Source: Amphiscolops sp. MND2022 (taxonomy: Eukaryota). Taken from it: a stretch of 64,000 nt of DNA. Positions within the stretch are counted from its first letter, which is position 1, and each line of letters opens with the position of its first letter. Where the stretch lies: NCBI GenBank assembly GCA_964187785.1, contig OZ076409.1:38318001-38382000 (forward strand), given 5' to 3'. Below are positions 30,852 through 62,336 of this stretch, in pieces. The position numbers were made by a program, and so were the translations under genes. The notes under the pieces were generated by a model. It did not search any database. It saw only the letters and a program-made list of their open reading frames with translations, and was not told where the DNA came from.

Positions 30852-30860
30852 CTTTGTGAG

Positions 30861-31673
30861 TCATTCAATTTGAACCTCCTTGCCATTTTGGTAGAGTTTA
30901 AGTTTTCTAATTTTCAAAGTTTTTGAATCAGTGCCATTCTGTATCATATCATATCTCTTTTGCAGGAGCGTTTTCTCGCGCAATGCGTCTTCTTTGGAAA
31001 GCCCAGGAGTAATCAGTACTTTGTGTTCCTGGAAGAGGTTATTTTCAATCGCTTTGGCAATGACCAGCCGTGCTTCCCATGGTGATTGGAATGTTATTAA
31101 AACTTTCCGTTTGCGTCCTGGGTAATAGCGGCCCATTCGTCTTACACCTTTGATCGGGAAGGAACAGTCAATTTTCTCAAGGACTTCTTCAATTTGAACT
31201 TGATCTTTAATCATCTGTTTTGATGCAGTGTTTTCAGGAGTTTCTTCAATGCCAGAGATACGTACTTGACATTTATAATCGTCAGTCATTACATTCATTA
31301 TTTTAGCAGTCGATGAATCAGGAGTTTTTGGTATCTCAAGAGGAGGAATCTTTGCTACTAATGTATTCAAATGAGAAACCATTTTACTTAGCTTTTCAGT
31401 TTCCTTTGGCAGATCCACACGAGCCCGCTGAGGTCCATCACACTCTTCACAGAACCAGTAGCACCCAGGGAGATTCCCCATTGCCGTCACCACAGCATTG
31501 TTTACGCCCAAGCAGACCCCGTGGAAGTACCTGAGGCATTGTTCACAGGCCAGGGCTGAATCCCCGTCAACTACCTCCACATCACATTTTCCACACGTTT
31601 CTTTTGCACAGGGTAGGAGGTCAGTAGTTGCACTTTTGCTGTTTGTCTGCTTCGTCTGTCTTTTTGGAGGCAT
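30861..31673 (-). CDS. LINE ORF1 with an N-terminal PHD finger and an RRM-like C-terminal half
   Basis: CGKC..ALACEQC..YFHGVC..WFCEEC (C4HC3); VRISGIEE and VRRMGRY..RKVLITF are typical of CR1/L2-type ORF1. Confidence 0.88.
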   Translation of the reverse strand: MPPKRQTKQTNSKSATTDLLPCAKETCGKCDVEVVDGDSALACEQCLRYFHGVCLGVNNAVVTAMGNLPGCYWFCEECDGPQRARVDLPKETEKLSKMVSHLNTLVAKIPPLEIPKTPDSSTAKIMNVMTDDYKCQVRISGIEETPENTASKQMIKDQVQIEEVLEKIDCSFPIKGVRRMGRYYPGRKRKVLITFQSPWEARLVIAKAIENNLFQEHKVLITPGLSKEDALREKTLLQKRYDMIQNGTDSKTLKIRKLKLYQNGKEVQIE

Positions 31674-31814
31674 CACAACCGGAAACTATTTAATAAGTTT
31701 ATCACAACAATTAGGCTTCTGTATTCTCACTCTCCAAAATGTTTCAGGCCGATCGGAATGTTTTCACGTGTCTAGATATTTTTTACATATTCAAATACCA
31801 AATAGTGGGGTCGG

Positions 31815-37745: not shown

Positions 37746-40700
37746 CTAGCTTTTATAGAAGAGCGTTTTGATCTGCGAGAAACACGACAATTGGTGTCCA
37801 GACCAGGATACATTTCAAGGTTAGCATGCTTAAAATTATTGCTGCCAGTTCCTTGTACAACTCAATTGAAGAACTTCAAATCAGTTTGCGTAAACAACTA
37901 CGAGAAATCGTCTACGCCGGTCCCGGTTTTAGCCTGAACCTAGAATCCGTGAACAAGTCAAAAGACTTTACCACTATCTAAAGTCCTGAGAACTGAAAAG
38001 TTCGAGGATCCTGTGGCACGAACTGATTAACAATACTATCACCCCCCACAAAAGTAATAACTATCAACCGCAAAGTGTAAATCAGCTAGTGGCTTCATTG
38101 AGAAGTCTCACAAACTTATGCGGCATAGTCTATTGTCAACGTACAGGGTCCCCGAATATCTTTGAAGACCTAAGAACATTGGACTTCTCAATCATCCAAG
38201 TCACGACAGATATCTTGAGCAAGTCTGATCAGCGCAGTGAAGAACATGTCGAGAAATACAAAGCCTTACATCAATCCAGCGATCTCGAACTCAGAAACTA
38301 GGTGTAGTCCTACATTATTATCCGAACCCGAGGAAGATCTTGGAAACAAGAGGCACCAAGCGAAGAACTCACGAGCAAGGAAGAGAGGCTAAGAGAAAAA
38401 GAGAAGACAACTAAAGGTGAGCTTTTAGAGTCTTGGACTCAGAGTCGCTGTTGTTACCTCTATTTAGCTTTTCGAATTAAAGGTGAGCTTTTAGAGTTTT
38501 GGACTCAAAGCCCCGTTTGTAATTCTTAGCCATTAAAACTCAAATTGTTCGAATCGTGTTTTTTTTTTCAAGTCATCACCAAAATCAATGGGTAACCCGG
38601 AATTGAACCTCAAGGAAACCGATGAAGCACTTATGTGGCTCAAGGCGTTCGAGGCGCGAGCGCGGGTTGAAAAGGAAAGGGACATCGACGCAATACCAGG
38701 AACTAGTGGACCGCCAGCTGTCGCTGCCATAGCAAAAAAATTATCAGGTGACCGGTTTTGTCATGAGCCAATGCGGCCTCGAAGCGTTGATAAAGCTCAG
38801 TAGCCTTGTCGCGCCCAGAAACATTGAAGACATGAAATTCATAGACAATCGTAAGGATCTCATCAATTACTTGAAGCCACAAGAGAGACTGGTGGTTGCA
38901 TAACGCACTGGCTTCCTTCAGATGTCTCAAGGGGAGAAGAAGTAGAAACCGACTACCTAGCTAGACTCCGAGAGGCTGCGCGTTATTGTAAGTTTGTCGA
39001 TCTCAAAGCTTCCCCGGATCCTGAAGCTGAAATGATCCGATTACAATTCATCGCCGGACTACGAGATCAAGTCTCAAGTTGCTTGAAGCACTCAGAGCAA
39101 ACAACAACTTGACTGTGAAAGCACTGCTTCAGCTTATTCAGTATAAAACCCAGGGCCAGAGACTTGCTTAGAACTCAGTTCATCAGTCAACTTCAAGTGT
39201 AGTGCGTATGCAGAAAAACGTGGCCGCAATAAGAAAAAAGATCTGAGTCGCCGTCAGAAGCCAGAGCAGTGTGGACCATGTGGACGAAAGCCTTTCCACC
39301 TACTTTATGAGTGCCCTGTTAGGGACGAAAAGTGCCACAATTGTTCGAAGCAAGGACACTATTCCACTATTCCTATGTGCAAAGCAAAAAGACAAGAAGC
39401 CTCGCGAACTGAAGGGTAACTTATCGGAAATCAAATGCATCAGTGCACCATACTTGTGATGAACAAGAACTCGAAGATCCCGCCTCATCCGAGGAAACTA
39501 TGTATTATGTGAACAAATCGCAACTGCAAAAGAAGTCCATCACATTGGAAGCAAAGCTGAATTTCATAGCATCAAGATAAATGGTCATGACGTTCGAATG
39601 CAGAACGACACTGGTTCTTCAGTGACCGTTATCGCAACAAAAAATTAGCGGGAAATTGGCTCTCTAACCTTGAGCACTAGCCCCCAATGTATTGAAGCAT
39701 ATGATGAACTCACAATACTTTATCTTGGTCATCTAAAGTGTGAGATCCCATGGGAAAAGATAATTCATAGCGTTGATGTTGCAGTTATCGAGTCTGAGAA
39801 AGAATTCGGATTGATCGGCAGAGGCGTGACCCGAGTTGATCACATGGAATCCAAGTCAAGATTGAATTGGCGAAACTTCAGGCACAAGGAATCATCACGC
39901 CAGTCGATCTAGGAGGTGTCATCAATGCTTCGAAAGTCGTGTGGCAAAGGTAGAAAGACGGATCTTTTCGTCTTTGTGCAGACTTCAAAGTTCATGTAAA
40001 CGATAAGATCATGACTGAAGATTACCCTCTTCTCGACATGGAAACATTATTTCACAAGCTGGAAGAATTAAAGTTTTACGTCAAGATTGACTTTAAATCT
40101 GCTCATTACCAAATATTGCTGGATGATGCAGCGCAGGAAGTTTGTGTCATCAACACAACGCTATGTCTCTTCAAGTTACTCAGACTACCTCAATGAATGA
40201 AAAACGCATCGGGGATGTTCCAGCGAACAATCGAGACCACTCTCAAAGGATTGGCTGGAACTATCTGTTGGAACGATTGGCTGGAACGAGTGGTACACGG
40301 AAGAACAAAAAGTCAATGTGAATGCGTTGGAGGGCAATTCAGGATCGCCTAAAAGACAAGGGGTTCACCATTAACGAAATCAATTCGGGATATTTCATGG
40401 AGAAAATCACTTTTCTCGGTTTAACAATTTCAGGAAGCGGGATTGAACCCGATGATCGCCTTGTCAATAAAGTCAGGAAAATCCATCCTCCTCAAAGTGT
40501 TCAGAAAGTCGAACAATTTTGTGGATTGGTCAAATTCTACGGCCGGTTCATCTCAATTTTCACGTCAAAAATTGCCCCAATATCTGATCTGAGAAAGAAG
40601 TCGGAGGCTGAGTTCCAGTGGACCGACAAACGTCAACGTGCATTCGAAAGGTTGAAGTCTGAGCTAGCATCGATACCTGTTGTTCAGCCCTATTCTCTGG

Positions 40701-41298
40701 AAAATGAAGTAACGATCACAACTGATGCGTCTGGGAAAGCTATTGGCGGAGTTTTATTTCAAGAGGGGCACCGTGTAATTTATGTATCGAAGACATTGTC
40801 TCAAGCCAAGCAAAGATACTTTAACATTGAGCGTGAAGCCTTAGCGATTGTTTTTGTGGTAAAACGCTTGAAGCAGGTTTTACTTGGCCGGAAATTCCAC
40901 CTCGAAACTGATCATCGTCCCCTGGAATTCATATTTGCTCCCAACAAGGGACTCCCAAAAACTGTATCAGCAAGAACCACAAGATGGGCAATTTCGCTTA
41001 TGGTCTTTGATAATGGGATTAAATACAAAGGTTCCTCGATTCCTCATGCTGACGACATGAGTAAACTGAATTTCCATAGGGATGACGACGAGTGCAATCT
41101 AGTCGACAACTTAAGTTCCAATCTTGATGAATTCTGTGTTCATTTTGCCGAGCATAAACTCATTCAATTCGAAGAGTTGAGGAGTGAATGTGAACGCAAT
41201 GAATTGGCGAAGCGAATTATCAGGCGTGTAATCGATGGCGATTGGAAAGCTTGTACTAAAGTAGAGAGTTACTTCAAGGAAGTATCTGGTTTCCTCAC

Positions 41299-42696
41299 TG
41301 TCGCAGGCTGCCGCCTGTGACGGCAATTACTACCAGATTTTGTTTGAGGGAGACAATACAAACCTTCCTCCAGGAACACTGTCTATTTGAACCGTCAAGA
41401 CACTCAGTCCGTACAGCCTCAACAAACTGTACTCGCTGTCCTAACTTAATTGACCAATCACAGCGCTGGTAAAATATCAATTGTGATGAGGCCGTGTGGA
41501 ATTACAGTCCACTACGGTTGAACTATCTAATGATTAGTACTGGTGTATAATTCAAGTACGTTACTGTAGCCGGACGGACTGATGGTCCATCACGGTATAT
41601 TTACTAGACTAGTGTGAATTTTCTTACCATGTATTGTTGCTTTGAAAACGAATGTAAGTTTTTTATGAATTCAAGTTGGATATTATCACACATGAAAATA
41701 TTACGCTAGGCTAACGCCGTCACCCCTTAGTATTGCTTTCATGCTATATTTAGTATTATGCATAATGACATCATGGTGATGTCACCAACCTAAACTAACC
41801 CAGATGCTATTAATAGTAACGCGACTGGCTAAATTATGATTGTCATGCAATGGGAAGTATATATAGTAGAGACCGGTGGGACAGAGAGATTCCTCCGTAC
41901 CTCCACGATACAACTCACAATCTACATATTGCAATTAATTTGAAACACAATTGAATTTTATTTTCTTACCAATTGTACACACAATATTATCGGCCAAGTA
42001 TTTCCCTGATACAAGTAGTAAATTCACTGTTGCCGTTTCCTACCTTTCCCCAAATGCCTTCAACTAGGAAGCAGAAGGCAAAAACGAGACGGTCTCGACA
42101 GCTAGACATGTCGCCTAATGTGGAAAATGTTGTTATAATTATAGGGAATTACTCTAGAGATGAAGATAGAAATGAACAGAGTGAAAGTGAACTAAACTTG
42201 CATTTAGGGTCTAATAGGCCTCAGCAAAGTTCCAATCTAATTGGCGAAGACTTTAGATCACTGCTTCTTATTAACAGTAGAGAAAACAGTGAAATGACCG
42301 TTGAAACAAACAGGATGATCAGTGAGGAAATCACTAATCAGATGTCGAGGAAATTGAATAAAATCAGAGAATGTTTGAATTTTCAATTAAAGGACGTAAA
42401 AACAAGTGCAATTACAGATAAAGTGCTACCATCCATCCAAAACACGTTAAGTTAGCAGGGGAGAGTCAATTACACCGTGGTAGACCGCGGGTCTTGCGGG
42501 CCACACGAAGGCACAACTGTAGCTAATTACACCATGGTGGACCAAAAGTCCAGTGGGCTACAGCGAAACACTGAAGTTGAAAACATCCTAAAAACGCGCA
42601 AAAAGCGTAACAAAACGTGGTTTTCACAGGAAAACGATGGACAAATGTCTCGCCAGAGTTCAGTAGACTCAATTATAAGCGAACAAAATCGCGACA
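41299..42696 (+). repeat. 5' LTR of element B
   Basis: tgtcgcagg...atcgcgaca; lacks about 190 bp present in the 3' LTR; TATA-like tatatata at 41858. Confidence 0.9.
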
Positions 42697-43122
42697 TGGT
42701 AACAGGAGCCAAACCTACCCCACATATGGTTCCTGAGTTTCTCACTGGACGTCCCATGCAATCCCGGGACCCCCTGCAAAGTCAAAATTCCAACAATGAT
42801 GAGTCTCAGGACACAGTCCCCCTGGTCTATGAGACTACAACACCAACTACGCCTTCTGATCCTATTAACCGTCTTGCAGAAGTACTAGTCGGCATGAATA
42901 ACCGTCCATCAGTACAAACACTGATAGTACGCCCACTCAGCACGACTACACTGACGTTTGACGGAAAATCGGAGAAACTCGATTTTTTTGAAGATCTCTT
43001 TCACACAATGATCAAAATGCAACCTGATATGACTGAAACAATCAAAATAAACCATTTTCATTCATTGTTACGCACGAATGCGTTACAAACTTTCCGTAAC
43101 ATTAATACGGCAAACAGCAAAC

Positions 43123-44389
43123 CTTGTACTCGCTGTCCTAACTTAATTGACCAATCACAGCGCTGGTAATATATCAATTGTGATGAGGCCGTGTGGAATT
43201 ACAGTCCACTACGGTTGAACTATCTAAGGATTAGTACTGGTGTATAATTCAAGTACGTTACTGTCGCCGGACGGACTGGTGGTCCGTCACGGTAAATTTA
43301 CTAGAGTAGTGCGAATTTTCTTACCATGTATTGTTGCTTTGAAAACGAATGTAAATATTTTATGAGTTCAAGTTGGATATTATCACACATGAAACTATTA
43401 CGCTAGGCTAACGCCGTCACCCCCTTAGTTTTGCCTTCATGCTATATTTAGTAATATGCATAAATACATCATGGTGATGTCACCAACCTAAACTAACCCA
43501 GATGCTATTAATAGTAACGCGACTGGCTAAATTATGATTGTCATGCAATGGGAAGTATAAATAGTAGAGACCGGTGGGACAGAGAGATTCTTCCGTACCT
43601 CCACGATACAACTCACAACTAACATATTGCAATTAAATTGAAACACAATTGATTTTGTTTTCTGTACCAATTGTACACACAATATTATCGGCCAAGTATT
43701 TCCCTGATACAATTAGTAAATTCACTGTTGCCGTTTCCTACCTTTCCCCAAATGCCTTCAACTAGGAAGCAGAAGGCAAAAGAGAGACAGTCTCGACAGC
43801 TAGACATGTCGCCTAATGTGGAAAATGTTGATATAATGATAGGGAATTACTCTAGAGATGAAGATAGAAATGAACAGAGTGAAAGTGAACTAAACTTGCA
43901 CTTAGGGTCTAAAAGTCCTCAGCAAATTTCCAATCTAATTGGCGAAGCCTTTAGATCACTGCTTAATACTAACAATAGAGAAAACAGTGAAATGACCGTT
44001 GAAACAAACAGGATGATCAGTGAGGAAATCACTAATCAGATGTCGAGGAAATTGAATGAAATCAGAGAAAGTTTGAATTTTCAAATAAAGTACGTAAAAA
44101 CAAGTGCAGTGCAATTACAAATAAAGTGCTACCATCCATCCAAAACACGTTAAATTAGCAGGGGAGAGTCAATTACACCGTGGTAGACCGAGGGTCTTTC
44201 GGGCCACACGAAGGCACAACTGTAGCTAATTACACCGCGGTGGACCAAAAATCCAGTGGGCTACAGCGAAACACTGAAGTTGAAAACGGCCTAAAAAGCG
44301 TAACGAAACGTGGTTTTTACAGGAAAACGATGGACAAATGTCTCGCCAGAGTTCAGTAGACTCAAATATAAGCGAACAAAATCGCGACA
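43123..44389 (+). repeat. Duplicated partial LTR of element B, followed by a second PBS and gag
   Basis: Near-identical to 41427-42696; the duplication unit LTR-PBS-gag is about 1.7 kb. Confidence 0.9.
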
Positions 44390-46653
44390 TGGTAACAGGA
44401 GCCAAACCTACCCCACATATGGTTCCCGATTTTCTCACTGGACGTCCCATGCAATCCCGAGACCCCCTGCAAAGACAAAATTCCAACAATGATGAGTCTC
44501 AGGACACAGTCCCCCAGGTGACTGAGACTACAACACCAACTACGCCTTCTGATCCTATTAACCGTCTTGCAGAAGTACTAGTCAGCATGAATAACCGTCC
44601 ATCAGTACAAACACTGATAGTACGCCCACTCAGCACGACTACACTGACGTTTGACGGAAAATCGGAGAAACTCGATTTTTTTGAAAATCTCTTTCACACA
44701 ATGTTCAAAATGCAACCTGATATGACTGAAACAATGAAAATAAAACATTTTCATTCATTGGTACGCAAGAATGCGTTACAAACTTTCCGTAATACAGTGG
44801 AGTTCGCTTATTAGCAATTGCTCTAATAGCAAGATTCATATATTAGCAAGTAAAAAATCCTCCCGAGCGGTATACGGTGTGAGATTGTTTGCCTATTAGC
44901 AATTTTCTTAATAGCAAGATTTTTTATTAGCAAGGATTTTTCATGTCCCGGGAGTCACTTTTCTCAGAAATATTCGCTTAATAGCGAGATGGAAGGTGAA
45001 ATTCTGTGACATTTCTGAGAAATAGGCACAATGCGTTTACATGCACATGCAAAGGAGTCTTGTTATTTTATTCAATAATTGAATCTGTTGATATCTTCAG
45101 ATTGGTTAATATGTCTACCAAACGTCCACGCACGGAACTTTCATTGTGTAAGAAATATGATATTGTTAAAGAGCTGAACGGGGGCGCGAAGCAGGCCGAT
45201 GTGGCCAAAAAATATGGGATCAATGAGTCAACCGTTTCTAGAATTAAAAAAGAGCGCCAATCCATTTCAAAAAAATTTGAAACGGGTGAGAAAAATGAAT
45301 CACGGGATGGATGAAAGAACTGTCATGAACATTGACTTGCTGGAGGGACTTATTTTGCTGCAACGAAGTTGGGAAGAGGTGAAATCCGACACAGTTCGAA
45401 ATTGCTTTAAGCACGTGGGATTCGTTAATGAAACGGTTACCGAAGATGTCGAGAATGCTGGCTCGGAATGTTTTATTGTCGAGGGTCAAATTTTGCCAAA
45501 TTATCCAAGTTTAAGCGAACAGGATTGGGTGGAATATATTGATGCAGATAACGATTGTGCAACGGATGGAAACGACGAAAAGATGCCCCAACTTCAAACT
45601 CCAGCTGGAGATACTGTTTTGACCATTGACAGCGATGAAGAAACAGAGGAAAATGAAGAATGCCCCGTGCGCGCTCAAGATGCATTGAATGCAGTTGGGT
45701 TAATACGGCGCTTTCTTGCCAACCAAGAAGGTAGCTGGCATCACATGAACAATCTGATGAACATTGAAGACTTTATTTCTATTCAGCGACAAGACAATAT
45801 GCATCAAACTACATTAAAAGCTTATTTTTCCAATATTTAAGTGAATTTAATTCATGTTTGCATATTAGAAAGTTTTTTTATTAGCAAGATTTACGAGGAC
45901 CCCCTGCGACTTGCTATTAAGCAAACTCTACTGTATTAATACGGCAAACAGGCAAACCTTGGAAGACATCTTGGCAGTATTTGGTCGGAAATACGTCAAA
46001 CCCGAGTCCCAGGCGACAGCCAAACACAAATGGCACACGTAGGTGTTTAACCCAAACACCATTAAATTGCCAGACTTCCTTGAGGAACTCAATCAAGGAG
46101 CTGAAAAAGCGTTTGGCGAGAACGCCCAGGCAATGATTGATAGTCTCCTATATGCCAAATTGCCGCCGAAATTGAAACGCTCAGTAAATATGGCCAGACT
46201 TGAAAATGCTACCTATGAGGAAATAGTCACCCATTTAGAACGCGAGCTTGAACTCAATGGACTTGAGGAGGGGGACGACATTCCAGTTCCAACAATGTCC
46301 ACTGCCCCTACAGCAAAACGCCGGGAACTGGCCTTCTATCTTCTGGCATCGATCCAAATGTTATTTGCAACTATTGCAAAAAACCCGGACATGTCAAAGA
46401 TGACTGTTGAAAACTCAAAAAAAGGAGGAACAATGCCGCAATGACGAGAAGGATACCAAGAAAGAATATCCAAAATGTCCCACTTGCGACAAAACGAACC
46501 ACCCGGCGGAACGATGTTGGAAAGGCCCTGGAGCCCACCTCAAGCCCAAACACTATAAACTGGAGGACACCACAGTTGCCGATACGTCTATCAGCCAAGA
46601 AGACGCAAAAAAACGGACAAACTACATCTATCTTAAAAAACCCAAAGAATTAG
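43753..46653 (+). pseudogene. Element B gag (second copy, interrupted by pogo) with two CCHC knuckles
   Basis: FDGKSEK capsid-like start; CNYCKKPGHVKDDC and CPTCDKTNHPAERC; frameshifts. Confidence 0.8.
44795..45933 (+). mobile_element. pogo/Tigger-like DNA transposon, internally deleted, inserted in the gag of element B
   Basis: TA|cagtggagttcgcttattagcaa ... ttgctattaagcaaactctactg|TA; CENP-B/psq HTH (KYDIVKEL..QADVAKKYGINESTVSRI); SWEEVKSDTVRNCFKHVGF; DDE core missing. Confidence 0.9.
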
Positions 46654-47149
46654 ATTTGCCACGACTCCAAAAGAAAATAAAAAAAACTCCGTGTCAGACA
46701 GTATATAATATCTGACCCTACAAACATATATTACACTGAGTACTATACAACTCATAAAAAACATCATCAGCTGACTGGCAGAAGCAGATGAAAACTCCAC
46801 CTAATTTTCCCACCACTTTGGACCTTATGTCCCACAGACTACAAAAAGATACTTCGACTTTACGACTTATACCCCTCATTGATGACTATAACCCATAATA
46901 CCCTGACCCTGACTATGGTTTTGAGGCTAATTGCTACAATCAACATCATCTATACTATTACAACAATTATAACAAACCAGATCAAGACGTAGAGCCGGAT
47001 TCTTCCGAAATAGATGAAGCTCTGAATACCGTCCTTGGGAATGCCCGAGTTGACCAATGGCCTCACTGTCAACAACTCACACACAAACCAACTCAGCCTG
47101 GGGCTGACACCGAGTTTCACCGTGGGGGACCACAGGTCTCACTGGCCTC

Positions 47150-50100
47150 AGCAGTTGCAGCACGTTTTGTCATCACACTGGTCACCAGAACTGGCGAGAC
47201 AGATTATGTGCCGCTGACGAACAATCTTGGCCTCAAATACAAACGACGAATGCTCTATTTTCCGATGGAATTCGGCCAACTTAATCTAGATGGCCTTGTA
47301 GACACAGGAGTTCTATCTAGTGCAACCCCAGAAGCTGATCTACGTAAATTCCGATTATTAGCCCCTCAGTATATTGCCAAAGAAAATTTCCCAATTATGG
47401 TTGCTAATGGGCAGCTGGAGACTCCGAAGAGCACAGTCGAGCTGAAGTTTGAGGTCGGCGACAGTGAATTCCACGAGATATTCATAGTTATGGAAAAACT
47501 CATCAGTCCATTGATCGGTCTTTCGTTCCTTCAACTGAACAACACCATCCTGGACATAAGACAAGGTGTCCTGAAATTCCCTTTCTTTTCAATGCAATTG
47601 AAAACTGCAGATCACAAGTATACTAACGTCATGGAACCCAGTTGCATTAGAGAGGATGTAACCATCCCACCTAATGACCGACACTCGGTCCAGCTTGCTT
47701 CACAACTGTACGAAGACACTACAGTTACTGGGATCCTTCAACCGAGCAACACCACCACAGATGACGGCTATAATGACTTCTGTGCTGTTCTAGTCACTTT
47801 GACCGATGGTCAAGTATCAGTTCACCTGAACAACTTCACCGACAGTCCCTACACCCTCAAAAGAGGCACACAAGTAGCCACTTTCACTGTTCTGACACCA
47901 GAACAGATGAAATATGTCAAACCTATAGATCCGGTGACCACATGGCACCTCTTGTAGGATAACCCTGAGAATGCTGCTTACTATGCAAGTAGCTTGATCA
48001 AATCTACAAAACCTGAGGACTTCAAGGAAAACTACTGGTTTCCCACATCAGAGGACCCTGGGGACCCTCAGCATCACACGCCAATCCAGAAAAGGATTTT
48101 GTCCGAACTAATCAATCTCCAAGAATTAGAGAGATTCAATCCTCAGGATAACCTTGAATCAAGACAACGGTTTTTGTCTAATTTTGACTGGACAGATCCC
48201 ATGCTAAAACCTGCTGAAATCGCTCGCACAGAGGATTTACTTGTCGAATTTCACAACATATTCGCAAGACATCGATTTGACATAGGTATGAACGAGGACT
48301 TCAAGGTCGAATTGACACCAAAAGACGATTCTCCAGCCTATAGTCAGAATTTGCCAACACCAATCAACCTCAAGGAAGACATCTTTGTAGATGTAGCACT
48401 AGTACATCGCTACGGGATAATTAAAACACTCCCATTCTCCAAATACGCAATCCCAATATTTGCCCAAGAGAAACCTAACGGCAAACTGCGACTTTTAGTC
48501 GATTCGCGCAAAATCAATAATCTTTTTTCCGTATATTATATAAATAACAACCACCCCGTGAGTACACTCACGTGTGCAGCCCAACACATGGCTGGGAAAA
48601 AGCTATTTCGTACATTGGACTGCTCGCAAGCATATCATTGCCTACAGATGGCAGACCAGCGGTCCATCGAAATGCTGGTTTTCAATTTTGCCAGCAGAAG
48701 TTTGCATACAGAAGATATGCACAAGGACTTAGCAAAGCCCTATCGGCCTTTTCTAGTTTCATGCGTGAAAATTTGGACAAAGTCATAAAAGCAGACCAAT
48801 GTGCCCAATACGTTGATGATATTGGCATCGTTGCCAACGACGCCGAACAACTTATCAACAACCTGAGGGCCACATTTCAGTGCATTCAACAAGCTGGTCT
48901 AAAACTTACGATGCATAAATACCAGTTTGGTGCAACTGAAATGGGTTTCCTTGGTCGTACCATCACTCCTGCTGGAGTGAAGTCGCAGAGACTACTGGTC
49001 CAAAACTTCTTAGAAAATACGGACTTCTCAAAATCCAAGAAAGCACTACAACGTTACTTGGGATTTTTAAACTATTACAGGAAATATATCTCAAGGCTAT
49101 CGGAAAAACTGACACCGTTTTTCAAATTACTTACGAAAGTTGAAAAAGTCCCGGTAACACCGGACCTAATAGAAAGGTTCACTGAAATCAATAAGACCTT
49201 CGACCGATGTTGTGAACTAGCACTCAAACAACCCTTACCGAACAAGCAAATAGCCCTCATGGCTGAGGCTAGCTTTTCGGCCGCAGGGTACGCAGTTCTC
49301 ATCGAAGACGATCCCCTCGAAAAACACACATCAACGAGCAAAACTTTCGCACCAGTAGCTTACGGATCCAAGACTTTTAGTCCTACCCGACTGAAAATGT
49401 CCATTTACGCGAAGGAATTCTTAGCAATTTTCTTTGCCTTCAAGGAAGTCGGACATATCTTTTGGGGAACCCCGAAGCCCGTGATTATACTTACCGATAA
49501 CAAATCCGTCACACGATTTTTCGAACAAAAATCATTCCACCAACACTCTGGAATGCGTTAGACTATGTCATTCAATTCAATTCCACAATTGCCCATACTC
49601 CAGGCTAAAACAACACCGCCGCTGACTACTTGTCCCGTCTCGAAATCTCTCCAAAAAAAATTAGAAAAATTGATGCTCAGGATTAGAGAAGATATTCCAA
49701 CAACACCGATTGAACTACACGTCCAATCGGCGGGAGTGTCAGACGAGGAACAAAGCTTTTATACGGAGAATGACGATGAAACGGAAGAAAAATTCTTACA
49801 ACGAAAAAAGGAAGGCAGGGGTCACCCAACAAATCAATTACCGTACATATCATTCGAAAAATTTACCACACACAAAAGCGTTTATCACAAATTTTCCACA
49901 TTTCAAAAACTATCCTACACGAACTCTATAGCAGTAGAGCAAAAGAACGACATCATCTCACAGCAATTGCGCCTCAAAATATTGAAAGAAAACTATTCAG
50001 AGACCATCTTAGTGCCCGAAAACCGCTACCAGCACTACTGTCGCCAAATGGACCGACAGTCCGTCACGGATGAAATTATTACCAGGCAGTATTTTGACGA

Positions 50101-51733
50101 AACGGGATCTATTAAGTATAATCAGGTGCTTTTACCAAAACACCTAGTCCCAGAACTACTTGAATCCTTACACGGCAAAGCCAAAAAACATCCAAAAGTT
50201 TCCGAGATGCTCATCGAAATTCGGCAAAAATATTATTATCCTGGCGTTGCAAAAATTGTTAAAAAATGTAATCAAGGATGCGAAATTTGTATAAAAGACA
50301 AAAGAATCCCAAACTCACCCATCACGCCTGAATTGCTCAACTTGCCCGAATGGGATTTAGGTCCAGAAGATGCAATGCAAATTGGTTTATTGCCTAACCG
50401 ACCCGCGAGTGGAGAATATGAGAACATAATAACTGCAATGGACGTGTTTTTAGGATACCTTTTTGCTTACCTGTTACAGACGCTTCGGCCACAAACTCGG
50501 CAAAGGTTACCATTGACATATTGACCAAGCACATACTTTTGCCCACTACTTTGATCACGGACAAAGGTACGGTCTTCACGTCCGAATTGGTGGCTGAAAT
50601 TGCCCAAATTTTGGGAATTCAAATAAAATGCGCAACTACAAAACTCCCACAAACAATTGGTAAACTCGAACGCACACACGCTAGCATTAAAACGAACCTA
50701 AAAATGGCCTCAGGGGACTATAAGCGACAGTGGCATAAATATTTGCCTTTTGCCGTATTAAATTATAATACGACCTACCACGCCACCCTGGGCTGTGAAC
50801 CATCCAGATTCTTTCATGGACGAATTCCATATAATGTATTAGATCACAAAATAGGCCTTAATCCAAACCCGAAGGTCTTTCCGACTACAGACTTTGCAGA
50901 TGAATTTCAAAGACGCACGCAAAAACTACTCGATTCCACAAAGAAAACATCATGCAACCCTATTTAAAATACAAAGAACTACGACCAAAAGGCCAAAGCG
51001 GCTCCTTTGAAGCAAAACGACTATTTCATTTTGCAACCTCTCGCTGATCATCAAGGATCAAAAATTCCATTTCGAGAATACCGATTGACCGGACCCTATA
51101 TTGTTGAGAAAGTCTTACCGAACGAAAATTGTATAGTCAGAAAATTGAATTCCAACAAAACGCAAATTCTACATCGTATTAGACTCCGTAAATACGAACC
51201 AAATACCGTCCTACAGGACATTAGACCGGAAGGCAGTTTGCAACCAGACGATGAAATTATTATTCTGCATGACGACCTGTACGTCATTACGTGGGAATCC
51301 AATTTTGGAGAATTTCCCAATTTCACTGAAGAAGTCACAATTCCTACGAATCGAGATGGCCTAGACACTTCTAATGATTTCGTCAATGATGCCAGCCCGC
51401 CAGACGAAATATTCACCGACGTGGACCTTAGGTCCACCGGGCCTCATGAAATTGACGCCAGCACGCCAGACGAAATTTTCATCGACCGACGTGGACCGCA
51501 GGTCCACCGAGCCTCACGAAAGTGATGATTTTGCTTCGCCTGAAAAAACCCGTTGACGATTGAGTGACAGGATTGACGATCAATAATCGTCAGGAGGGAG
51601 CGATACTATCGTGACCGAAGTATCAGACGATAAAAACGACGATATGATTGTAGAAAATGTAAGCCCTAGGGGAGGGAAATATAACCTTCGAACTAACCCC
51701 ACCCCCAACTTCACTGATGAATACAGATACTAA
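47150..51733 (+). pseudogene. Element B pol: protease, dUTPase-like segment, RT, RNase H and integrase (frameshifted)
   Basis: LVDTG; QYVDD; EFLAI..TDNKS; H..HP..CEIC, ITDKG and GKLERTH; ends KYNLRTNPTPNFTDEYRY*. Confidence 0.92.
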
Positions 51734-52056
51734 TCAGACATTTATATTACTGTCCCTAACTAACATACGTATTTTTATCGGACTCGACTGACTGATTATC
51801 ACCGACTGAACTAAAATGGAACTGATAAATAGGATCACATACAATGGATAAGAACGAAATATATAAAATTACAGTTTACAACACAATTGTACATATAGTA
51901 CAATTAAGATTTACTACTACTAGCATTCAGACGTTCGGCAGGCTTAGTCAACTCCTCACTGGACAACAGGTCACTATGACGCCTGCCTGGTTTCGGCACA
52001 ATGAATTAAGGAGGACCCTTGGTACTTTTAACCACACTCGAAGTTGAAGGAGCATC

Positions 52057-55000
52057 TTATTTACTAGAGGGAGTTGGTCCAATCACACCTTTTATCTGAG
52101 CGCGCCCAAAGTGATGAAGACTTTCCCAGGGACTATAGGTGTCCTTCAAACCAGTGGTCCCGAAGGTAGGCTCGAGCGCAAGAAACCTCCGGACTGAATC
52201 TTTTGAGGTGAAAATATCATTACTACGAGAGGATCCACCAACGTAGGACTGAATGGGCGTCACGAAGTCATTTACAGGACTCTTCAAATCATCGGTATGG
52301 ACTGACCCATACTTGACGGGAGGAAAAGACTGTCGGGACAAACACATCCAAACACAAACAGCTGAGGCGGAAAATGGAGATGAGATGCAAGCCGGACTTG
52401 AAGGCTGACTGTCCACACAAAGTCGATGACATCAGGAATTAGTAACTTTGGTTGGAGGTTGCCTGGATGGTCCCGGCGGAGTTCGTCTAAGAATGAGAAG
52501 TATTCTTCGGAATATACGGGCTCCTCATCGGCCGTTAACAACCCTCGAAGGCGAAAACTGCTGAATAGTAAGCAGCCTGCTCAATCAGATCAGTCAGCAT
52601 AACATCTAGATCAAACGCCCCAAGTCTTCTTACAATGTCTGTCGTGAAACGTCGCATTCCTTGCACTCCTTTGAAAAGAAAGATTACATAACTGCGCCGG
52701 ATCGTTCGAACTCTTCCTTAGTCTTTCCAATGACTGCTTCGAGGCTGAGACCCTCGTGCTTTTTCTCACTCAGTTCCTTCTCTGCTCTCAACTTGCATGT
52801 CGGGGACAACTTGTCGCTCAACTTAGATCGGGTCAGGAATTCGTCTATAGGCATGGCTTTAGCGTCTGTGAGGGAGTTATTGTAGATGCCAATCAGATCA
52901 GTTTCGACGGGAAGGCTACTGGCCCGGACACACCGTCTGGCAAGCTTGAACAGGTATTGGCTCATCTCCCGATACAAATGAAATCCTCTATCATGTCGCC
53001 GTTTGAGAGTGACGAGGAAATGTCCAGTATCTGTCAACAATTACGCAATACTTAAACGCTGACCATCACCTTAGAAAACGAAATGCAGAATTCTACTAAC
53101 AAGCACGCACGAGACGCTGGAATAGTTCCAATCGATTGAGGAAAAGATCATCATACACGATGGACCACTGGAGATTCTGCGGCTGAAACACGAACAATTA
53201 GAAGCTCCGCAGGGGACCTTAGGTCGACGCGGCTAGAGAATACTAACTTGCTTGCGGACTCCTTGGTGTTCCTGATATGGAGCGTGTGTAGCTAGGAAGT
53301 CAGTCACTTTGGTCCAATTGCGAATTAAGTCTTGACAGAGTGTTGTAAACCATTGATGTCCAACTGACAAGTTCTGATGGCCTGGAAGAAAACATCAAGT
53401 TCAAACTAGAGACCAGTTACCTTAAACTCGACAACACCCAAGAGATCTTACCTAACCTTGGTAAATTCGGGGGAAAACAGAATCCATTCCATATCAAGAC
53501 TGCCGCCTAACGACAGGACAAGGTACTGTAGCACAGAAAAGAACTCGATCCTTCCAAATATGCTGTAGTTCTTCCAGTGCATTAGGGTCTTCAGGTCCAG
53601 CTCCTCAATTCTGGGTGGGCTTTGGAGACCATATTTCGTATACGGGCATTGGTTGAGCAGCTGAATTGTCCGAAGGTAGTTCCAGTGCAGTTGATCATGT
53701 TAGGAGAAGTGGAAATAGCACCCATCACGAACGAGACCACTGATTTTGGCCTGAGTGAGGCCGAAGAGACGTCGAGTCCGTTTTATGAACACTCGATGTA
53801 ATTGAGCCTCCCGCCAAAAACGGGTCTAAACGAGGACAAACACTCCATCGTGGGCAAACTCCAATGCGTACTCTGAACTGGTCGCGACGTGAGTAGCAAT
53901 ATCATTCATCATCTCCATGAACAAGTGATGAAAGATCATTTAAACACAACATAATAAGATCTCATTTTGCTGTGGCCAGTGGGACGCAGAGTCTACGATG
54001 GTATCTTTGAGGTACAAAATGGCCTAAAATAATACTCACTGAAAGTCTTTCTTTCGTCCAATCAAAGTCCATAAACAGAGACTGGTGGTTGACAACCACA
54101 CCCACGTCCGTCCAAAAGTTCCTCAGGACATCCAGATCACCATGTTGGGGAAGAAATCTACAGACTACAGAGATTTGGATGCGGGCCCTATTGTCTGACG
54201 ATGAGGACATGTAATCCGCTCCGGCCATGAACTCATCATAGAAGGGGAGTTTCGCTCCTATGTCGACTAGCTGCGCGTCCTTGAACTTCGGGTATTCTAT
54301 CTCTAGTTGAAATGGGGTACGAATTTTCCCATCCTTGCCGCGGACTTGATGCGTTTACCAGTGTGACAGGGTCAGTTTTGACGAGGTGCTCGTACCGCCA
54401 CTCCTGATCTTTTCGCAAGTGTTGCTCTGTGGGATGGTGACGGAGAATCTCTCGGGCCCCTTTGCCATAAATCGAGATGTTGGCCTTATAAATTTGGCAT
54501 TAAAATTTGTAAGGATTACATCTGGAAAAACAATGTTTTGGTCTACTCCATGCGCTTAAAGTAGGCTTCTTTCATGATTTTGCATGAGGGGGTAATTTTT
54601 CTCTGAGATCCAGATGTCTTTGTTTTGGGCACGTAACGTCCTTGTTGGCTGCGAGGTTGCCGAGCACGATCTTTGATGGCCTCTAACTTCAGAGAAGCAA
54701 GGGTCTGTGAGTCAGGTCTGTCAGCCTGTAATTCTCCTGTGGACCGAAGGTACGATGGGCCACATCCAGTAAAAGGTCCAGCAAGAGGGGGACTAGCGAT
54801 AAATTTAGGTTCAGAGTGTTCAAACTAATACCCGATACTGGCGAAATCGTCATCGCTCCGAATAGCGCCACTTGTATCGCTATAACCACCAGATTTGTAG
54901 CCTGCGCCACTTGTGCCTTTTGATGATCCATTGGAAGATTTTGTGGATGAAGTCCTTTTGGGAGCCTTTTTGGAAGAGGGCTTGGGGTCAAGACGTAATA

Positions 55001-56176
55001 CACTGGCACGTTGTATCAGATTTTCCAGGATATCATACGAGGTACGAGCAGTCTCATCAGCTACAATTCGCAGTACACTGCTAATTTGGTCTTGCGAAAA
55101 GGATGTCCTTGTATTAACTTGACAGTTTCATTGGGCGAAATATTCCTTTATCAAGGCTCGGCTGCTGACTCTCAAAGGCGGAATTACTGAGATGTCTTTT
55201 GGTCTGGTAACGGCAACTGAACTGGAGTCGTCACTGAATGCAGTCCTCGGTACTCCACCTCTGGTATTGAGGGCCTGTGCCAGGGTCGAACCAACAAAAT
55301 CTGAAGACTCGACGCCAGTTCTCACTTCGGTGTCAGTTCATGCTTCTCCGTCTGACGTTGTGCAAGATAAAGCAGGCTGATGACTAGTGGTAGCGTGACC
55401 TTCTTGTGCAGGCAATTCAGCAGATTGGACTGTAGGGGTGAGAGAGGAAGAACGTTGACAATAAATGTTAAATGAGGAATCAGCATTGACAGAAGGATGA
55501 GTCATTTTGCTCCTCTTCGTAGGGTTCTCGCAGTCAGGAGACCTGCTGCCGTCAGACGAGGCTATGGGATCATCAAGAAAAGTGACCTTTGGAACATCGA
55601 GCGCAAGTGCAGGCTTAGAACTGAACAAGTTGGACCGTGGAGTGACTTCAATCTGCCTTTGATTTTCAACCGTGACACCAAGAGGCTGTGAGCTAGCCTG
55701 GCCCTCCATGTCTTGCAATTTCCGTACTAAGTAAGCTTCACAACTTTCGCGAGATCCACTACTATCCGAAGTTAGGAGCCTTGAGGTGGTGGCGGGATCA
55801 ATTGGAGTCTGAGGCTCAGTAGACTCAGCGTCCATTGGTTCACTCTGCTGATTAGTACTGTCACCATTGGCAGGATTAGTGCTGTACACGTTCAGGGACG
55901 AAGAAGGGACGGGAGTTGCAATTAAGTTATTTGAATCTTGGACTGGTTGGCCAGTTTTCTCTGTGTCTATACGAAAAGAGATAAAAGTACGTGGTTCACT
56001 TCCTGAAAATGAATCCATCTTACCGCAATTTTGAAAACGTTCCGGAAGTAAGTTTGAACTAATGTTTCATGATGAAAACATTTCACGATGGAGGAAGAAC
56101 TTTATGTCAGACTAAGCATTGATCAAATTTAATTTGTGCAAAATTTCAAAAAGAACCAACCTGATGTTATCTCCAT
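52057..56176 (-). pseudogene. Spliced antisense accessory gene of element B: S/T/P-rich N-terminus, C2H2-type zinc finger and a putative inactive hAT-transposase-like body
   Basis: Chain of collinear minus-strand ORFs broken by single stops or frameshifts; introns 56160-56003 (GT-AG, phase 1), 54039-53940 (gtgagt donor, mutated acceptor) and about 53455-53382. Confidence 0.65.
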
Positions 56177-57185
56177 GATTCAGAGGCAAAATTGATAGCC
56201 CAAGAGTCTCAGTAGAAAGACAATCGCCAAGTCTGCTTCGTTAGCCCTGTTCCTTCACTTGGCCTTGATGTCGGAGTTGCTGGTCGTACTGGTGATCCAA
56301 CGCGGAAGTTAATGGCTTCAGAGGAAGGGTCAAGTGTCGAGTGAATTGAAAAGGAATTCAAGAGGAAGTAATGTAGTAAACTGATTGAATTACCAGTGTT
56401 TGGAGTCGTTCTTAGAACAACGTTGGGGAATACTAGTAGTTAGACACAAAACATGTATACTTAAACAATGTTTACTACCAACTAAAAGATACTAGCTAAT
56501 TACCAACTGAGACTAAAAGACCGAATGGACTGTTACTGAGACGCCTAATTACCTGCAGAAAAGGAAGTCGTGGCCTACCTATTAATCTTCTACAACAGCC
56601 ATTGTTGCCTTTTATCATATTACTCATGACCGAAACCATTCAAATATTATTTTCATGAACAAAACCTGCCAGCGAGATTCATGAATTTTCTTTCGTTTTG
56701 CATCCAAATTAACTAATGAATAAGACTATCTTATAATCTCAGTTTTCATTCATGATTACCTAACTTTATTCATTCGACTAGTCAAGCATTCGCATTGGCT
56801 AGTTTCTTGGCTGAGGCTGAGCGGACCGATGGTCTTTGATGGAGAATATTTACCATCAGTTAGTGTTAATAAACACTAAATGTGATGAACACCTCTTCTC
56901 TAGCTGGTGAGTAAACCACTTGAGAAACACTCGAGAGCCAAAAACGAAAAGCGCCGGCTTGCCTACAGTTTTGAAGAAAGTAGAAACTTTCATAAATGGA
57001 AGAAAGAAGGAAATGTTTGCAAGGAATTGTAACAAACCCCTTCCCGCGGAAATCTTCCCGCAAGCCAAGTAAAGAAATAAGGTTGGTGATGCGCAAAAGT
57101 CATTTTCACAAACTTTGATTTGAGAGACAGTTACTTCTGGTCACAGTTGAAAATTGCTGAGAAACTTCTTCTCAACCGATACAAA

Positions 57186-58006
57186 ATGGAAATGAAATTG
57201 CAGTTCTCTATAGATGAACTGAGTGCTTCACCAGTTAGTCCTAGTTACTTCTCTTCTGTGGAAGAAATGGAAGTGGACGCACAGTCAGTGGAAGCTGCAG
57301 TCCGCTCGTCGGACGACAGTGATATAGAAGTCATCGCACGTTACCGGCAATTGCCAATCCAGCCACAGTCACCAGTTGCCGGGAGACAAATGACTACTGA
57401 CTTGCCAGTCTGCGCGGACAGCGGGTCCCCACACTTTCCTTGAGACGACTTTGAAAGCATACTACAGTCTACTGAAGAACAACCAGATCCGTTGGACAGG
57501 GGAGCCGCCCCTAGTGAGGGTACATGGACCGGAAAACCACTGATCAGGCATTGTGGGCAATTGCAGCCACAAATCGATACTCCATTGTCACCACCTGTAC
57601 ACCTGTACACGAGAGAGGCCCAAGCTATAGTCCAAATGTCACAGACCAACAACTGAATCAACCAATCCCTCTAAGTTCACACATTCAAGGGATCAGTGTT
57701 AGAATGGTTTCGCATTGTGGACAACCCAACACGGCTCAATATGGTGATTGCAATATTTGTGGACGCAATTACGAACAAAACAAGGTCACAGCTGTACTCA
57801 TTTACGTGGAGGTGACAACATACCGCGATTAAACCTATGGAGAACGATTAAGACGACTAGATGCTTACCTTGCCGGTATGAAGTGTGGAACAGTGCTCTT
57901 CGTCCCTAGGGGAGTGTCGCAGGCTGCCGCCTGTGACGGCAATTATTACCAGATTTTGTTGGAGGGAGACAATACAAACCCTCCTCCAGAAACACTGCCT
58001 ATTTGA
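57186..58006 (+). pseudogene. Sense accessory ORF of element B running through the PPT into the 3' LTR; function unknown
   Basis: MEMKLQFS... acidic/Ser-rich, then GDCNICGR...RRLDAYLAGMKCGTVLFVPRGVSQAAACDGNYYQIL..ETLPI*; two stops and one frameshift in this copy. Confidence 0.55.
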
Positions 58007-59502
58007 ACCGCCAAGACACTCAATCCGCAGCCTCAACAAACTTTAATTTCGTGAATATGGAAACTGTTGTATTATAATATGTATTTTGTGTCTACTAGAA
58101 AGTTGCTATTATGTTGCTATTCGTAATATAATAATTGCTGTTGAAGAAAATTAGAGAATCAATGCGCAAAAAACAAAAGTGCTGTAATTTCAATATAGGA
58201 AACGAGTTCAAATGAATTCGTTCTCTAGCTACTTGTACTCGCTGTCTTAACTTAATTAACCAATCACAGCGCTGGTAATATATCAATTGTGATGAGGCCG
58301 TGTGGAATTACAGTCCACTACGGTTGAACTATCTAATGATTAGTACTGGTGTATAATTCAAGTACGTTACTGTGGCCGGACGGACTGGTGGTCCGTCACG
58401 GTAAATCTACTAGATTAGTGCGAATTTTCTTACCATGTATTTTTGCTTTGAAAACGAATGTAAATCTTTTATGAATTCAAGTTGGATATTATCACACATG
58501 AAACTATTACGCTAGGCTAACGCCGCCACCCCTTTAGTATTGCTTTCATGCTATATTTAGTATTATGCATAATGACATCATGGTGATGCCACCAACCTAA
58601 ACTAACCCAGATGCTGTTAATAGTAACGCGACTGGCTAAATTATGATTGTCATGCAATGGGAAGTATATATAGTAGAGACCGGTGAGACAGAAAGATTCT
58701 TCGTACCTCCACAATACAACTCACAACCTACTTTTTGCAATGAATTCGAAACACAATTGAATTTGTTTTCTGTACCAATTGTATCCACATTATTATCGCC
58801 CAAGTATTTCACTGATACAATTAGTTAATTCACTGTTGTCGTTTCAAACCTTTCCCCAAATGCCCTCAACTAGGAAGCAGAAGGCAAAAGAGAGACGGTC
58901 TAGACAGCTAGACATGATGTCTGATGTGGAAAATGTTGATATAATGATAGGGAATTACTCTAGAGATGAAGATAGAAATGAACAGAGTGAAAGTGAACTA
59001 AACTTGGACTAAGGGTCTAATAGGCCTCAGCAAAATTCCAATTTAACTAGCGAAGACTTTAGATCACTGCTTAATACTAACAGTAGAGAAAACAGTGAAA
59101 TGACCGTTGAAACAAACAGGATGATCAGTGAGGAAATCACAAATCAGATGTCGAGGAAATTGAATGAAATCAGAGAAAGTTTGAAATTTCAAATACAGGA
59201 CGTGATGACAAGTGCAACTACAGATAAAGTGCTACCATCCATCCATAACACGTTAAGTAGGCAGGGGAGAGTCAATTACACCGTGGTAGACCGAGGGTCT
59301 TGCGGGCCACACGAAGGCCCAACTGTAGCTAATTACACTACGGTGGACCAAAGGTCCAGTGGGCTACATCGGAACCTTGAAGTTGAAAACGGCCTAAAAA
59401 CGAGTGAAAAGCGTAACAAAACGTGGTTTTCACAGGAAAACGATGGACAAACGTCTCGCCAGAGTTCAGTAGACTCAATTGTAAGCGAACAAAATCGCGA
59501 CA
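57915..59502 (+). repeat. 3' LTR of element B
   Basis: Follows the PPT; tgtcgcagg...atcgcgaca, then TSD ctcac. Confidence 0.92.
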
Positions 59503-60761
59503 CTCACAGTTGAGAACAGGCTGCTATACAACGGAACTAGACCTTACATTCCAACAAGAATGCAGAACATCATAATTGAACGAACCCATGACACGCAACC
59601 TGGTATCCAAGCGACAAAAAACATGGTGAACATAAGGTCCTGGTGGCCTGGGGTCGGAAAAGATGTTGCAAAATTTCTAAGTGGCTGCTCTGAGTGTGAA
59701 AAAAGCCGAACAGGAACTCAGAAATCGATCGATACTTGGCCGGATGCACAACCATGGGAGAGACTACACGTGGATTGGGCTTATATCCAAGAGGTAGGCA
59801 ACATTTTTATTATTGTTGACGCTGGTTTTGGTTGGATAGAAGCGTTCTTATGCGGCGATCGACCCATGGAAAAAATCATACATTGTCAGTCCGCCATTTT
59901 CGGGAGATTTGGGGTCCCGCACACTTTAGATTCCGACAATGCAAAAGAATTTATCAAGTTGTCACGTGGTTACAGAATTAGAGAGTCTAATCTACAATCA
60001 AGGAGTAATGGACTTGCCGAACTGGCTGTGCAGACTGTAAAGAAAGCAATGAGGGAATGGAACTCGTCCCTTCGTGTCAGTTTCAATGCATTTCTGCAGC
60101 GAGTCCTGTTCACACATCGTAACACTCCTTCCGTGAGAGGGAAGACTCCCTTAGAAGTTCTGCTTGGAAGGAAAATGCGACTCCCTGCGCTCATCAATTT
60201 TCCCATCGGAGAGCGTGTAGTTTTTGGTGCTGGACTTCATTCTGCGTCTTTTCCTGCGAGGTATGTTGTTCGGAAGGGCAATAATACAGCGTGGCTCACT
60301 AAGAAAGATTCAGACGGGTCCGACAGAACAATTCTAGTGAGTACCAGCCAATCTGCTCCCTTTGCCTGTCCAACTATCGTTGCCCCTGATCTAGTGATGG
60401 CTAGATCAACTACGGATGGTACTACGACCACGGAAGTGGCGGAACAAACTTCGACATGCGTTTTTAGTAGAGACTCGTCTTTGGTTGTAAAGTCTTCTGC
60501 TACTCCCGAGGTCCCGATTAGGAGGTCTGCACGAGTCAGGAAACCGAACCCAAGATTCAACGACTTCATTGGCAAGTAGCCTTGAGAACTCTTGGAAGGG
60601 GGATGATGTGTATACTGATTTATGCATTTATTATATATTGCTGTATTCGACATATGTTTAATTTTAGATGTCGATGCCCTTTTGATATGTGCTTTGATGT
60701 CTGCCGTCTTGTGAATACTAGCTTTTATAGAAGAGCATTTTGATCTGCGAGAAACACGACA

Positions 60762-62336
60762 GAAACTGATCATCGTCCTCTGCAATTCATCTTTGCCCAA
60801 ACAAGGAACTCCCAAAAACCGTATCAGCAAGGATCACAAGGTGGGCCATTTCGTTTTTGGCCATTGACTTTGAGAATAAATAGGAAGAAGGTTCTTCCGT
60901 TCCTCATGTCGACGCCATGAGCACACTGATTTTTGATCAAGATGACGACGAGTGTAAATTAGCTGATTACACAAGTCTCAATCTTGATATCTGTGTTTAC
61001 TTTCCGGAGCATAAACCCCTTTCACTCGAAGAGTTGTGGAGTGAATATAAACGCGATGAATGTACAAAGCGAGTTATTATGCGTGTAATCGATTCCGATT
61101 GGAAAGCATGTACGCAAGCGGAGTAGGTTCTCATAACGTATTTGGTTTCATCACAAACGAGAATGGGCAGCTACTCAACAAAACTAGACCTTTTTGCATC
61201 TAAGAATGTGGAACATCGAAATTAAACGATTTCAGACAATTAGGAAAATGATGAATTTAATGTTTTGATGGCGTGGGGCCAGAAAATAGGCTGAAAAAGT
61301 CAAAAGAGTCTGCTCTCAATGTGCAGAAATCCGACCACGAACTTAGAAAGTGGCTGATAAATGGCCGTATGCACAGCTATGGAAGAGACTACATATGAAT
61401 TGGGCTGACATTGATGAAGTAGGCAACATTTTTATTTTTGTTAGTGCAGGTTCTGATTGGCTGAGTCGTTCAGATTGCCCATAGAAAACGTCATACAAAC
61501 GGTCGCAATGTTTGGGAGACTTGGGGTAGCACACAATTTTTTTCCGAAAACTGCATGGAACTTTAGAGTAAGAAAGCTGTCACGTGGTTACAGGCTCAAG
61601 GATGCACAAAATTGGAAACACCAATCAATAATCCAAGCAGTAATGGTTTTGACGAACGGACTGTGCAATGGAAAGAAAGCAGTGAGGGCGTGGAACTCGT
61701 CACTTCGTGTCAAAGTTTATGCACTTCTGCGATAAGCCCTGTTCACACACCGTAATACTTCTTCCGTTAGAGGGAAGACTCTCTCGGAAGTTCTGCTTGG
61801 AAGGCAAAATCGACTCCTTGCTGTCATCAATTTTCCCATCGGACCTGACACCTCGTCTTTTCCTGCCATTAATATCGTTCGAAAGGGCAATACTACAGTA
61901 CGGCTCTCTTAGGACAATTCAGACGGGAACGAGAGACTCATTATAACAAACACTAGCCAAACTGCTCCTTTACACAGTCCAACTATCGTTGTCCCTGATA
62001 TAGTGCCAGCTAGATCGACTACATATGTTGCTACCACCACAGGAGTGGCGAACAGATTTAGACTTGCGTTTCTGGCAGAAACACATCTCTGGCCATAAAG
62101 TCTTCCACTACTCCCGAGATTCTGATTAGGAGTACAGCACGTGTCAGGAAACCGAACTCGAGTTCAACTATTACATCTGCAAGTAGCCATTATAACTCTT
62201 GAAGAGGGATGATCAGTACCTTGATTAATGTCTTAGTATTTTGTTTGATTTTAGATGAAGTTTTGATGTCCCTGTAGTATGCACCTTTATTGAATAGCTT
62301 CTATTGAACAGTGTTTCGATCGCCGGAATTACGATA
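60762..62336 (+). mobile_element. 3' part of old gypsy A' (RNase H end, integrase, PPT and 3' LTR 62210-62336)
   Basis: Starts ETDHRPL; collinear with the pol of element A; PPT gaagaggga; its LTR shares tgtccct.tagtatgc.cctt and ttgaacagtgttt with the LTR at 26209. Confidence 0.75.

Follow-up and report, generated by a model that had tools for sequence, protein, structure and literature searches.

Genomic evidence for a spliced, exchangeable antisense gene, likely of hAT transposase origin, in a gypsy retrotransposon clade of Amphiscolops sp.

GTF2IRD2, FAM200/ZBED5, and DAYSLEEPER are host genes derived from hAT elements. Transposases can activate the copies that they match and, with catalysis lost, have time and again turned into transcription factors, and TnpA of Spm arose from a transposase (10.64898/2026.08.24.746577). 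The VANC proteins of plant transposons act against silencing (PMC5735166). Among retrotransposons, the plant Tat/Retand, Grande, and RIRE2 gypsy elements possess antisense open reading frames (ORFs) between pol and the 3' LTR (PMC7264820, PMC11963269), the origin and function of which are stated as unknown, and the maize Grande antisense product was described as nuclear and as having its own promoter (PMC7264820). In animals, LTR elements of bdelloid rotifers were found to have captured ORF3 and dUTPase genes (PMC5408684). Fixed antisense ORFs at this position are already known from plant gypsy elements, and what is new here is the exchange of the gene as a cassette. Searches of open full-text articles listed no intron-bearing, transposase-derived, exchangeable antisense gene and no account of this clade.

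We analyzed a window of 64,000 nucleotides (the whole stretch of DNA under study), in which a gypsy element of 18.2 kb (element B, 41299-59502) lies within pol of an older gypsy copy (Table 1). The reading frame of the older host (40322-41317) resumes at 59485-60576 across element B. It was noted that this older element is split into the parts 40322-41298 and 59503-62230, with a second diverged copy of its integrase region at 60762-62230. The LTR pair of element B was 93.3% identical across 1394 aligned bases, gag-pol contained a 1.7-kb tandem duplication (41420-43099 and 43115-44792), and an insertion at approximately 44800-46000 carried a CENP-B N-terminal helix-turn-helix (Pfam, E 9e-9) and a second short frame, probably representing an internally deleted pogo-like DNA transposon. 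Because of these three features, the window copy is read as an old, broken member of a large gypsy clade.

Target duplications of 5 bp were found at the window copy and at three other copies, together with short inverted LTR ends, a primer-binding site (PBS), and a polypurine tract (PPT), and the Ty3/gypsy pol order (protease, RT, RNase H, integrase) was found by Pfam on an open relative. A younger subfamily of about 15.5 kb possessed LTR pairs that were 99.8-100% identical in all three copies examined, with open gag (592 aa) and pol (>1650 aa) frames. In all subfamilies examined, gag started approximately 640 nt inside the LTR (42054-42696 and 58860-59502 in the window; L051:3274-3928 in a relative), so that each LTR repeats about 210 codons and the gag frame runs through the PBS. 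A weak dUTPase-like signal was recorded between protease and RT in the same relative (L051:4983-9998, residues 335-447; Pfam E 0.015-0.026, below the cut-off). The bdelloid elements are similarly animal and gypsy-like, with modular extra genes common to lineages and a dUTPase; their ORF3s are env-like, esterase, or exonuclease genes, and the accessible portion of that account does not describe an antisense intron-bearing gene (PMC5408684). Elsewhere in the window, a dispersed short-repeat family occurred in both orientations (4685-22167), with at least 16 copies of one 42-nt unit, and long minus-strand frames of 939, 274, and 306 aa were present at 28041-32907.

Table 1. Coordinates of element B and its antisense gene in the 64,000-nucleotide window.
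Feature	Position	Strand	Remarks
Left target-site duplication, 5 bp	41294..41298	.	Within pol of older gypsy element
5' LTR	41299..42696	+	About 190 nt shorter than 3' LTR; contains first ~210 gag codons from 42054
PBS	42697..42709	+	Falls within gag frame
gag-pol, broken	42054..51733	+	Pfam on open relative: gag, protease, RT, RNase H, integrase
Antisense gene ex6, last coding exon	51904..53030	-	Helical region mapping to Hermes 368-609, then basic low-complexity tail
Antisense gene ex5, 82 nt	53101..53182	-	
Antisense gene ex4	53248..53381	-	135 nt in relatives, frameshifted in window; region of RW motif in hAT proteins
Antisense gene ex3	53457..53939	-	RNase H-like core; maps onto Hermes 149-264
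Antisense gene ex2, first coding exon	54040..56018	-	Long acidic region, rich in S/T/P, that includes a single ~60-aa conserved block; then a basic NLS-like stretch and the Cys2-His2 finger
Conserved block at antisense start	55978..56143	.	2-5 GGAAG/CTTCC motifs; one cassette breakpoint just upstream
Putative 16-nt exon 1 of antisense gene	56161..56176	-	Donor-like site conserved more widely than its ATG
ORF3, sense, broken in window	57183..58003	+	~272-285 aa in open relatives; acidic, CxxC; ends within 3' LTR
Short PPT	57908..57914	+	
3' LTR	57915..59502	+	
Right target-site duplication	59503..59507	.	

Comparison of the copies showed a fixed place, a common intron structure, intron loss, purifying selection, cassette exchange, and a lack of catalytic motifs in the antisense gene. 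The first-pass annotation had proposed an intron-containing antisense gene within the gypsy element, which was borne out by open relatives, conserved introns, and purifying selection; the peptides and splice signals that it quoted are present on the minus strand where it had placed them. We modelled the gene in 30 copies, taken from the top of the searches and thus favoring open ones. In open relatives, five coding exons encode a product of approximately 1190-1330 aa. The four introns occupied the same positions and phases in copies down to 37% identity, and GT-AG was found at 108 of the 114 junctions present. Intron lengths were 59-192 nt, mostly not multiples of three, and the small exons were constant (486 or 495, 135, and 82 nt) except in two broken copies. 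The joined core was stop-free in 18 of the 30 copies, which is not a genome-wide rate because the loci were chosen from search tops; 17 of these 18 were aligned and were 37-97% identical. Of 136 pairs, only two had a dS below 1, and their dN/dS was 0.086 and 0.092; synonymous sites were saturated in the remaining pairs (median pS 0.82, pN 0.33). On these two usable pairs, the gene is under purifying selection, and an intact spliced frame with dN/dS below 1, named as a check by the first-pass annotation, was recovered.

Intron i4 was absent from two copies and intron i5 from four, with the exons fused exactly in each case. In a tree of 29 of the 30 copies, each intron-less set formed one supported clade nested among intron-bearing copies, so that two precise intron losses are the simplest reading, and because the losses are precise they confirm the exon boundaries without RNA. 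As far as genomes can tell, the antisense gene is a real spliced gene.

In the window copy, the gene has approximately 12 in-frame stops (a count that is uncertain where tblastn pieces overlap) and at least five frameshifts, with one degenerate acceptor at 53940 and a frameshift within the exon 53381-53248. The peptides 'MIFHH' and 'HQWFT', taken at first sight as part of the protein, are products of this damage, and the tryptophan of 'HQW', which had been read as the hAT RW motif, is out of frame and was created by the frameshift. The gene had been ended at 52057, with the exon 53182-53101 and the boundary at 53030 missed; it ends at 51904 and has four coding introns. As for its proposed start, ATG 56176 is in phase in the window and its 16-nt exon is present in 12 of the 30 copies, all on the window's side of the tree; the general start is ATG 56018, which was present in 29 of the 30. 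The acceptor of the 16-nt exon was missing in 3 of 29 copies. This exon could supply the true start in the window's subclade, and its donor-like site may be where an intron of the 5' UTR begins. Ahead of the antisense start (56161-56118 in the window), donor-like and downstream TTGATCAG-like sites are conserved in most subfamilies and may mark a short intron of this type. A short palindromic element directly after the antisense stop (51906-51885 in the window; L119-L136) was also noted in most subfamilies, located at the 3' cassette breakpoint. In one copy (L117:1663-5664), most of the first coding exon is tandemly duplicated in frame, giving two fingers in a 1334-aa open frame, and another rearranged copy (L123) kept the cassette with most of pol deleted.

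The antisense region proved collinear in further copies: a DNA search of the genome scored 40 of 1816 candidates and gave 62 matches. Protein searches of the genome gave 8,039-8,913 candidates each at first look, figures that should not be taken as copy numbers. In all 19 loci taken from divergent subfamilies, these exons were antisense and lay between the end of integrase and ORF3/LTR. The earlier remark that no TIR surrounds the gene also held, with no bracketing inverted repeat in the window or in three open copies among the five longest pairs per region. Judged from sequence, the antisense gene is a fixed component of the element and not a nested transposon. In the protein database, the finger-bearing exon retrieved 165 clusters at 90% identity and the last exon 823 representatives at 50% identity; ENA was the sole source wherever a source was shown. 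Three of four database proteins searched in this genome were present at 100%. Because the fourth matches the genome at 41% at most, the family probably reaches at least one other assembly.

The profiles of related copies indicate that the antisense gene is an exchangeable cassette swapped between elements. In 7 of 20 profiled pairs, the flanks were 92-100% identical over most of both and the antisense gene approximately 40-84% identical by alignment window. One profiled pair had the antisense gene in common (95%) and not ORF3 (about 60%), and the ORF3 and antisense-gene trees disagree. When one ORF3/LTR flank was searched in the genome, we found 14 copies with its own cassette and 17 places matched by the flank alone. 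Thirteen of these 17 adjoined three other cassette types (6, 4, and 3 places); among the remaining four, three carried a cassette (one of a new type) and one was a deletion derivative without cassette or pol. Altogether at least six cassette types, L135 included, occurred beside this flank (itself 95-99% identical), several in many chromosomal copies, and the recurrence of cassette and flank combinations on many chromosomes argues against assembly chimeras. The core was 50-73% identical and the finger 71-93% identical for five of the six types. As the finger shows the least variation, the difference between cassettes probably lies in the proteins that they bind, or simply in age, rather than in the DNA target. 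Breakpoints fell close to the conserved block that surrounds the start codon and immediately after the stop.

ORF3, which like the cassette exchange and the intron losses had gone unnoticed in the first-pass annotation, stands head to head with the antisense gene, and in relatives (L031:6240-7061) its last 29 or so codons are inside the LTR in all subfamilies examined. Its median dN/dS was 0.18 (7 pairs). ORF3 had no match in Pfam and no transmembrane segment of the env-like kind, the highest 19-residue hydropathy being 0.5-1.4 in 10 copies. It was noted that ORF3 is tandemly repeated in L035, L042, and L046, and that it is retained between LTR sequences without cassette or pol in L138. The block at the antisense start contained a mean of 3.7 GGAAG/CTTCC motifs per copy compared to 0.15 in shuffles (29 copies). 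Ahead of ORF3 (window ~56770-57270), motifs that we take to be E2F-like had a mean of 1.9 per 500 nt compared to 0.31 in shuffles (29 copies), and these could tie ORF3 to dividing cells.

The finger of the antisense protein, C-x2-C-x16-H-x5-H, was invariant among aligned copies. Pfam gave no zf-BED match to this finger and weak C2H2 matches below the cut-off, and its language-model neighbours were GTF2IRD2 and FAM200B. When folded separately, ex3 and ex6 mapped collinearly on Hermes with middling scores, in agreement with the initial description of a finger followed by a helical C-terminus. The predicted order, in which a finger of the Cys2-His2 type precedes an RNase H-like core and then a helical half at the C-terminus, would be that of Hermes. 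The loss of catalytic residues that had been claimed was also found, with the DDE triad and the RW, CxxH, and ER motifs not kept. For the proposed hAT origin, the structural collinearity spoke in favor, and searches with hAT Pfam families, PDB profiles, and profile-profile comparison gave no significant match. We consider a hAT origin likely on the structural evidence. It is rather unlikely that another RNase H-fold source (a host gene, or a transposase of the Mutator, P, or another DDE type that has a helical insertion) supplied the protein and that the Hermes matches are convergent, since Hermes alone fits the long helical ex6 as well, and in the right order (two hAT groups tested), and the finger neighbours are of the GTF2IRD2/FAM200 types.

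The protein appears to resemble hAT/Hermes and the hAT-derived host genes in the order of finger, RNase H first half, helical insertion, and C-terminal segment, and resembles the domesticated forms in having lost catalysis. Unlike those host genes, it is carried in many copies by a retrotransposon without TIRs and not at a host locus, and unlike hAT it carries extra sequence, approximately 500 aa at the N-terminus and about 100 aa behind the finger, with no significant sequence similarity. Similar to the plant Retand, Grande, and RIRE2 elements, it represents a fixed antisense accessory gene at the same place in most copies with predicted DNA binding (PMC7264820, PMC11963269). It differs from the plant antisense ORFs in its four conserved introns with precise losses, its product of 1200-1330 aa, its predicted transposase-like fold, and its cassette exchange; introns are not mentioned for the Retand antisense ORFs in the accessible portion of that source (PMC7264820). 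The plant TRP28 domain (PF04195) had no Pfam match to the protein.

The domain order of the antisense protein is, to judge by these predictions, the anatomy of a nuclear DNA-binding regulator. We give roughly even odds (a probability of about 0.5) to the reading that it is a zinc-finger regulator acting in the nucleus on the transcription or chromatin of the element itself, which is favored because of this anatomy together with the precedents of TnpA, VANC, and the nuclear Grande product. We infer the expression, nuclear entry, DNA binding, target, and regulatory effect of the protein. The gene would be transcribed antisense and then spliced, and its introns would survive retrotransposition because the genomic RNA reads the opposite strand; occasional recombination with a spliced copy would have removed two of them. 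After nuclear entry, the protein would use its conserved finger to bind short motifs common to the clade, with the GGAAG block, the ORF3 promoter, and the LTR as candidate targets. The dead transposase body would oligomerise the protein, and the long acidic region would recruit host factors, either raising transcription of the element or preventing its silencing. Template switching at the conserved blocks on both sides would carry whole gene versions between subfamilies. Like VANC and TnpA, such a protein is a mobile-element accessory protein diversified between subfamilies (PMC5735166, 10.64898/2026.08.24.746577). Those two come from plant DNA transposons, whereas here the donor is of another transposon class, the finger is conserved as the rest diverges, and anti-silencing is only a candidate role; LTR elements and retrotransposons are not mentioned in the accessible portion of the TnpA preprint (10.64898/2026.08.24.746577).

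A hAT-derived protein acting at integration, which would tether or import the pre-integration complex or select target chromatin, is an improbable alternative. The conserved NLS-like stretch and finger would suit such a role, no chromodomain was found in the integrase by Pfam, and a role of this type has been proposed for the plant antisense ORFs (PMC7264820). However, cassettes 50-73% identical sit on integrase ends 92-100% identical, which gives no sign of a co-evolving interface, and the gene would be on a separate mRNA that need not enter the particle. We regard as quite improbable a self/non-self or addiction module with ORF3 as partner, its versions held by frequency-dependent selection, whether it protects only elements or cells with the matching version or meets a changing host silencing factor. 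The many cassette versions on one flank and the discordant trees are what such a module would produce; the free reassortment of ORF3 and cassette speaks against a matched pair, and template switching between old subfamilies yields the same mosaic.

Very little weight is given to a remodelled metal site in a protein that is still a nuclease or a strand-transfer helper. In 25 of 26 copies strand 1 retains a glutamate, which an ungapped reading of the aligned ranges places at D64 of HIV integrase and which may be what is left of the first Asp; several further acidic residues do not vary. Against this, by the hAT sequence register the first Asp belongs two residues later, in a column that varies among E, A, and T, the place of the second Asp is taken by Ser/Thr or Gly, and the ER, RW, and CxxH motifs are absent. 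A nested DNA transposon or neutral passenger amplified with the element can be practically dismissed. In its favor, the gene has decayed to a pseudogene in the window copy, the genome is rich in hAT elements (150 scored matches), and one derivative lacks the cassette, though it also lacks pol. Against it, the conserved splice junctions and a dN/dS of about 0.09 refute neutrality; splice sites are conserved across saturated synonymous distances, and the gene, without terminal inverted repeats or catalytic motifs, keeps its place in all subfamilies examined.

Most known examples of antisense accessory ORFs in LTR retrotransposons come from plants (PMC7264820). The present case supplies a probable origin, the transposase of another transposon class, as well as splicing that is indicated at the genome level by precise intron loss and a natural experiment in which different gene versions sit on nearly identical elements. 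We offer as a tentative idea, more doubtful than probable, that a transposase was domesticated by a retrotransposon and is run as a spliced, antisense, swappable cassette for counter-silencing or self-recognition, its versions being alleles in an arms race with the host, and that this gene allowed the clade to occupy much of a 1-Gb genome. If this is true, dozens of natural versions on nearly identical backbones would make the function of an antisense accessory gene directly testable. Should the protein prove to be a regulator, it would add domestication by a retroelement, in place of a host, to the known route by which transposases become transcription factors, and it may help explain the very large LTR loads in some invertebrate genomes.
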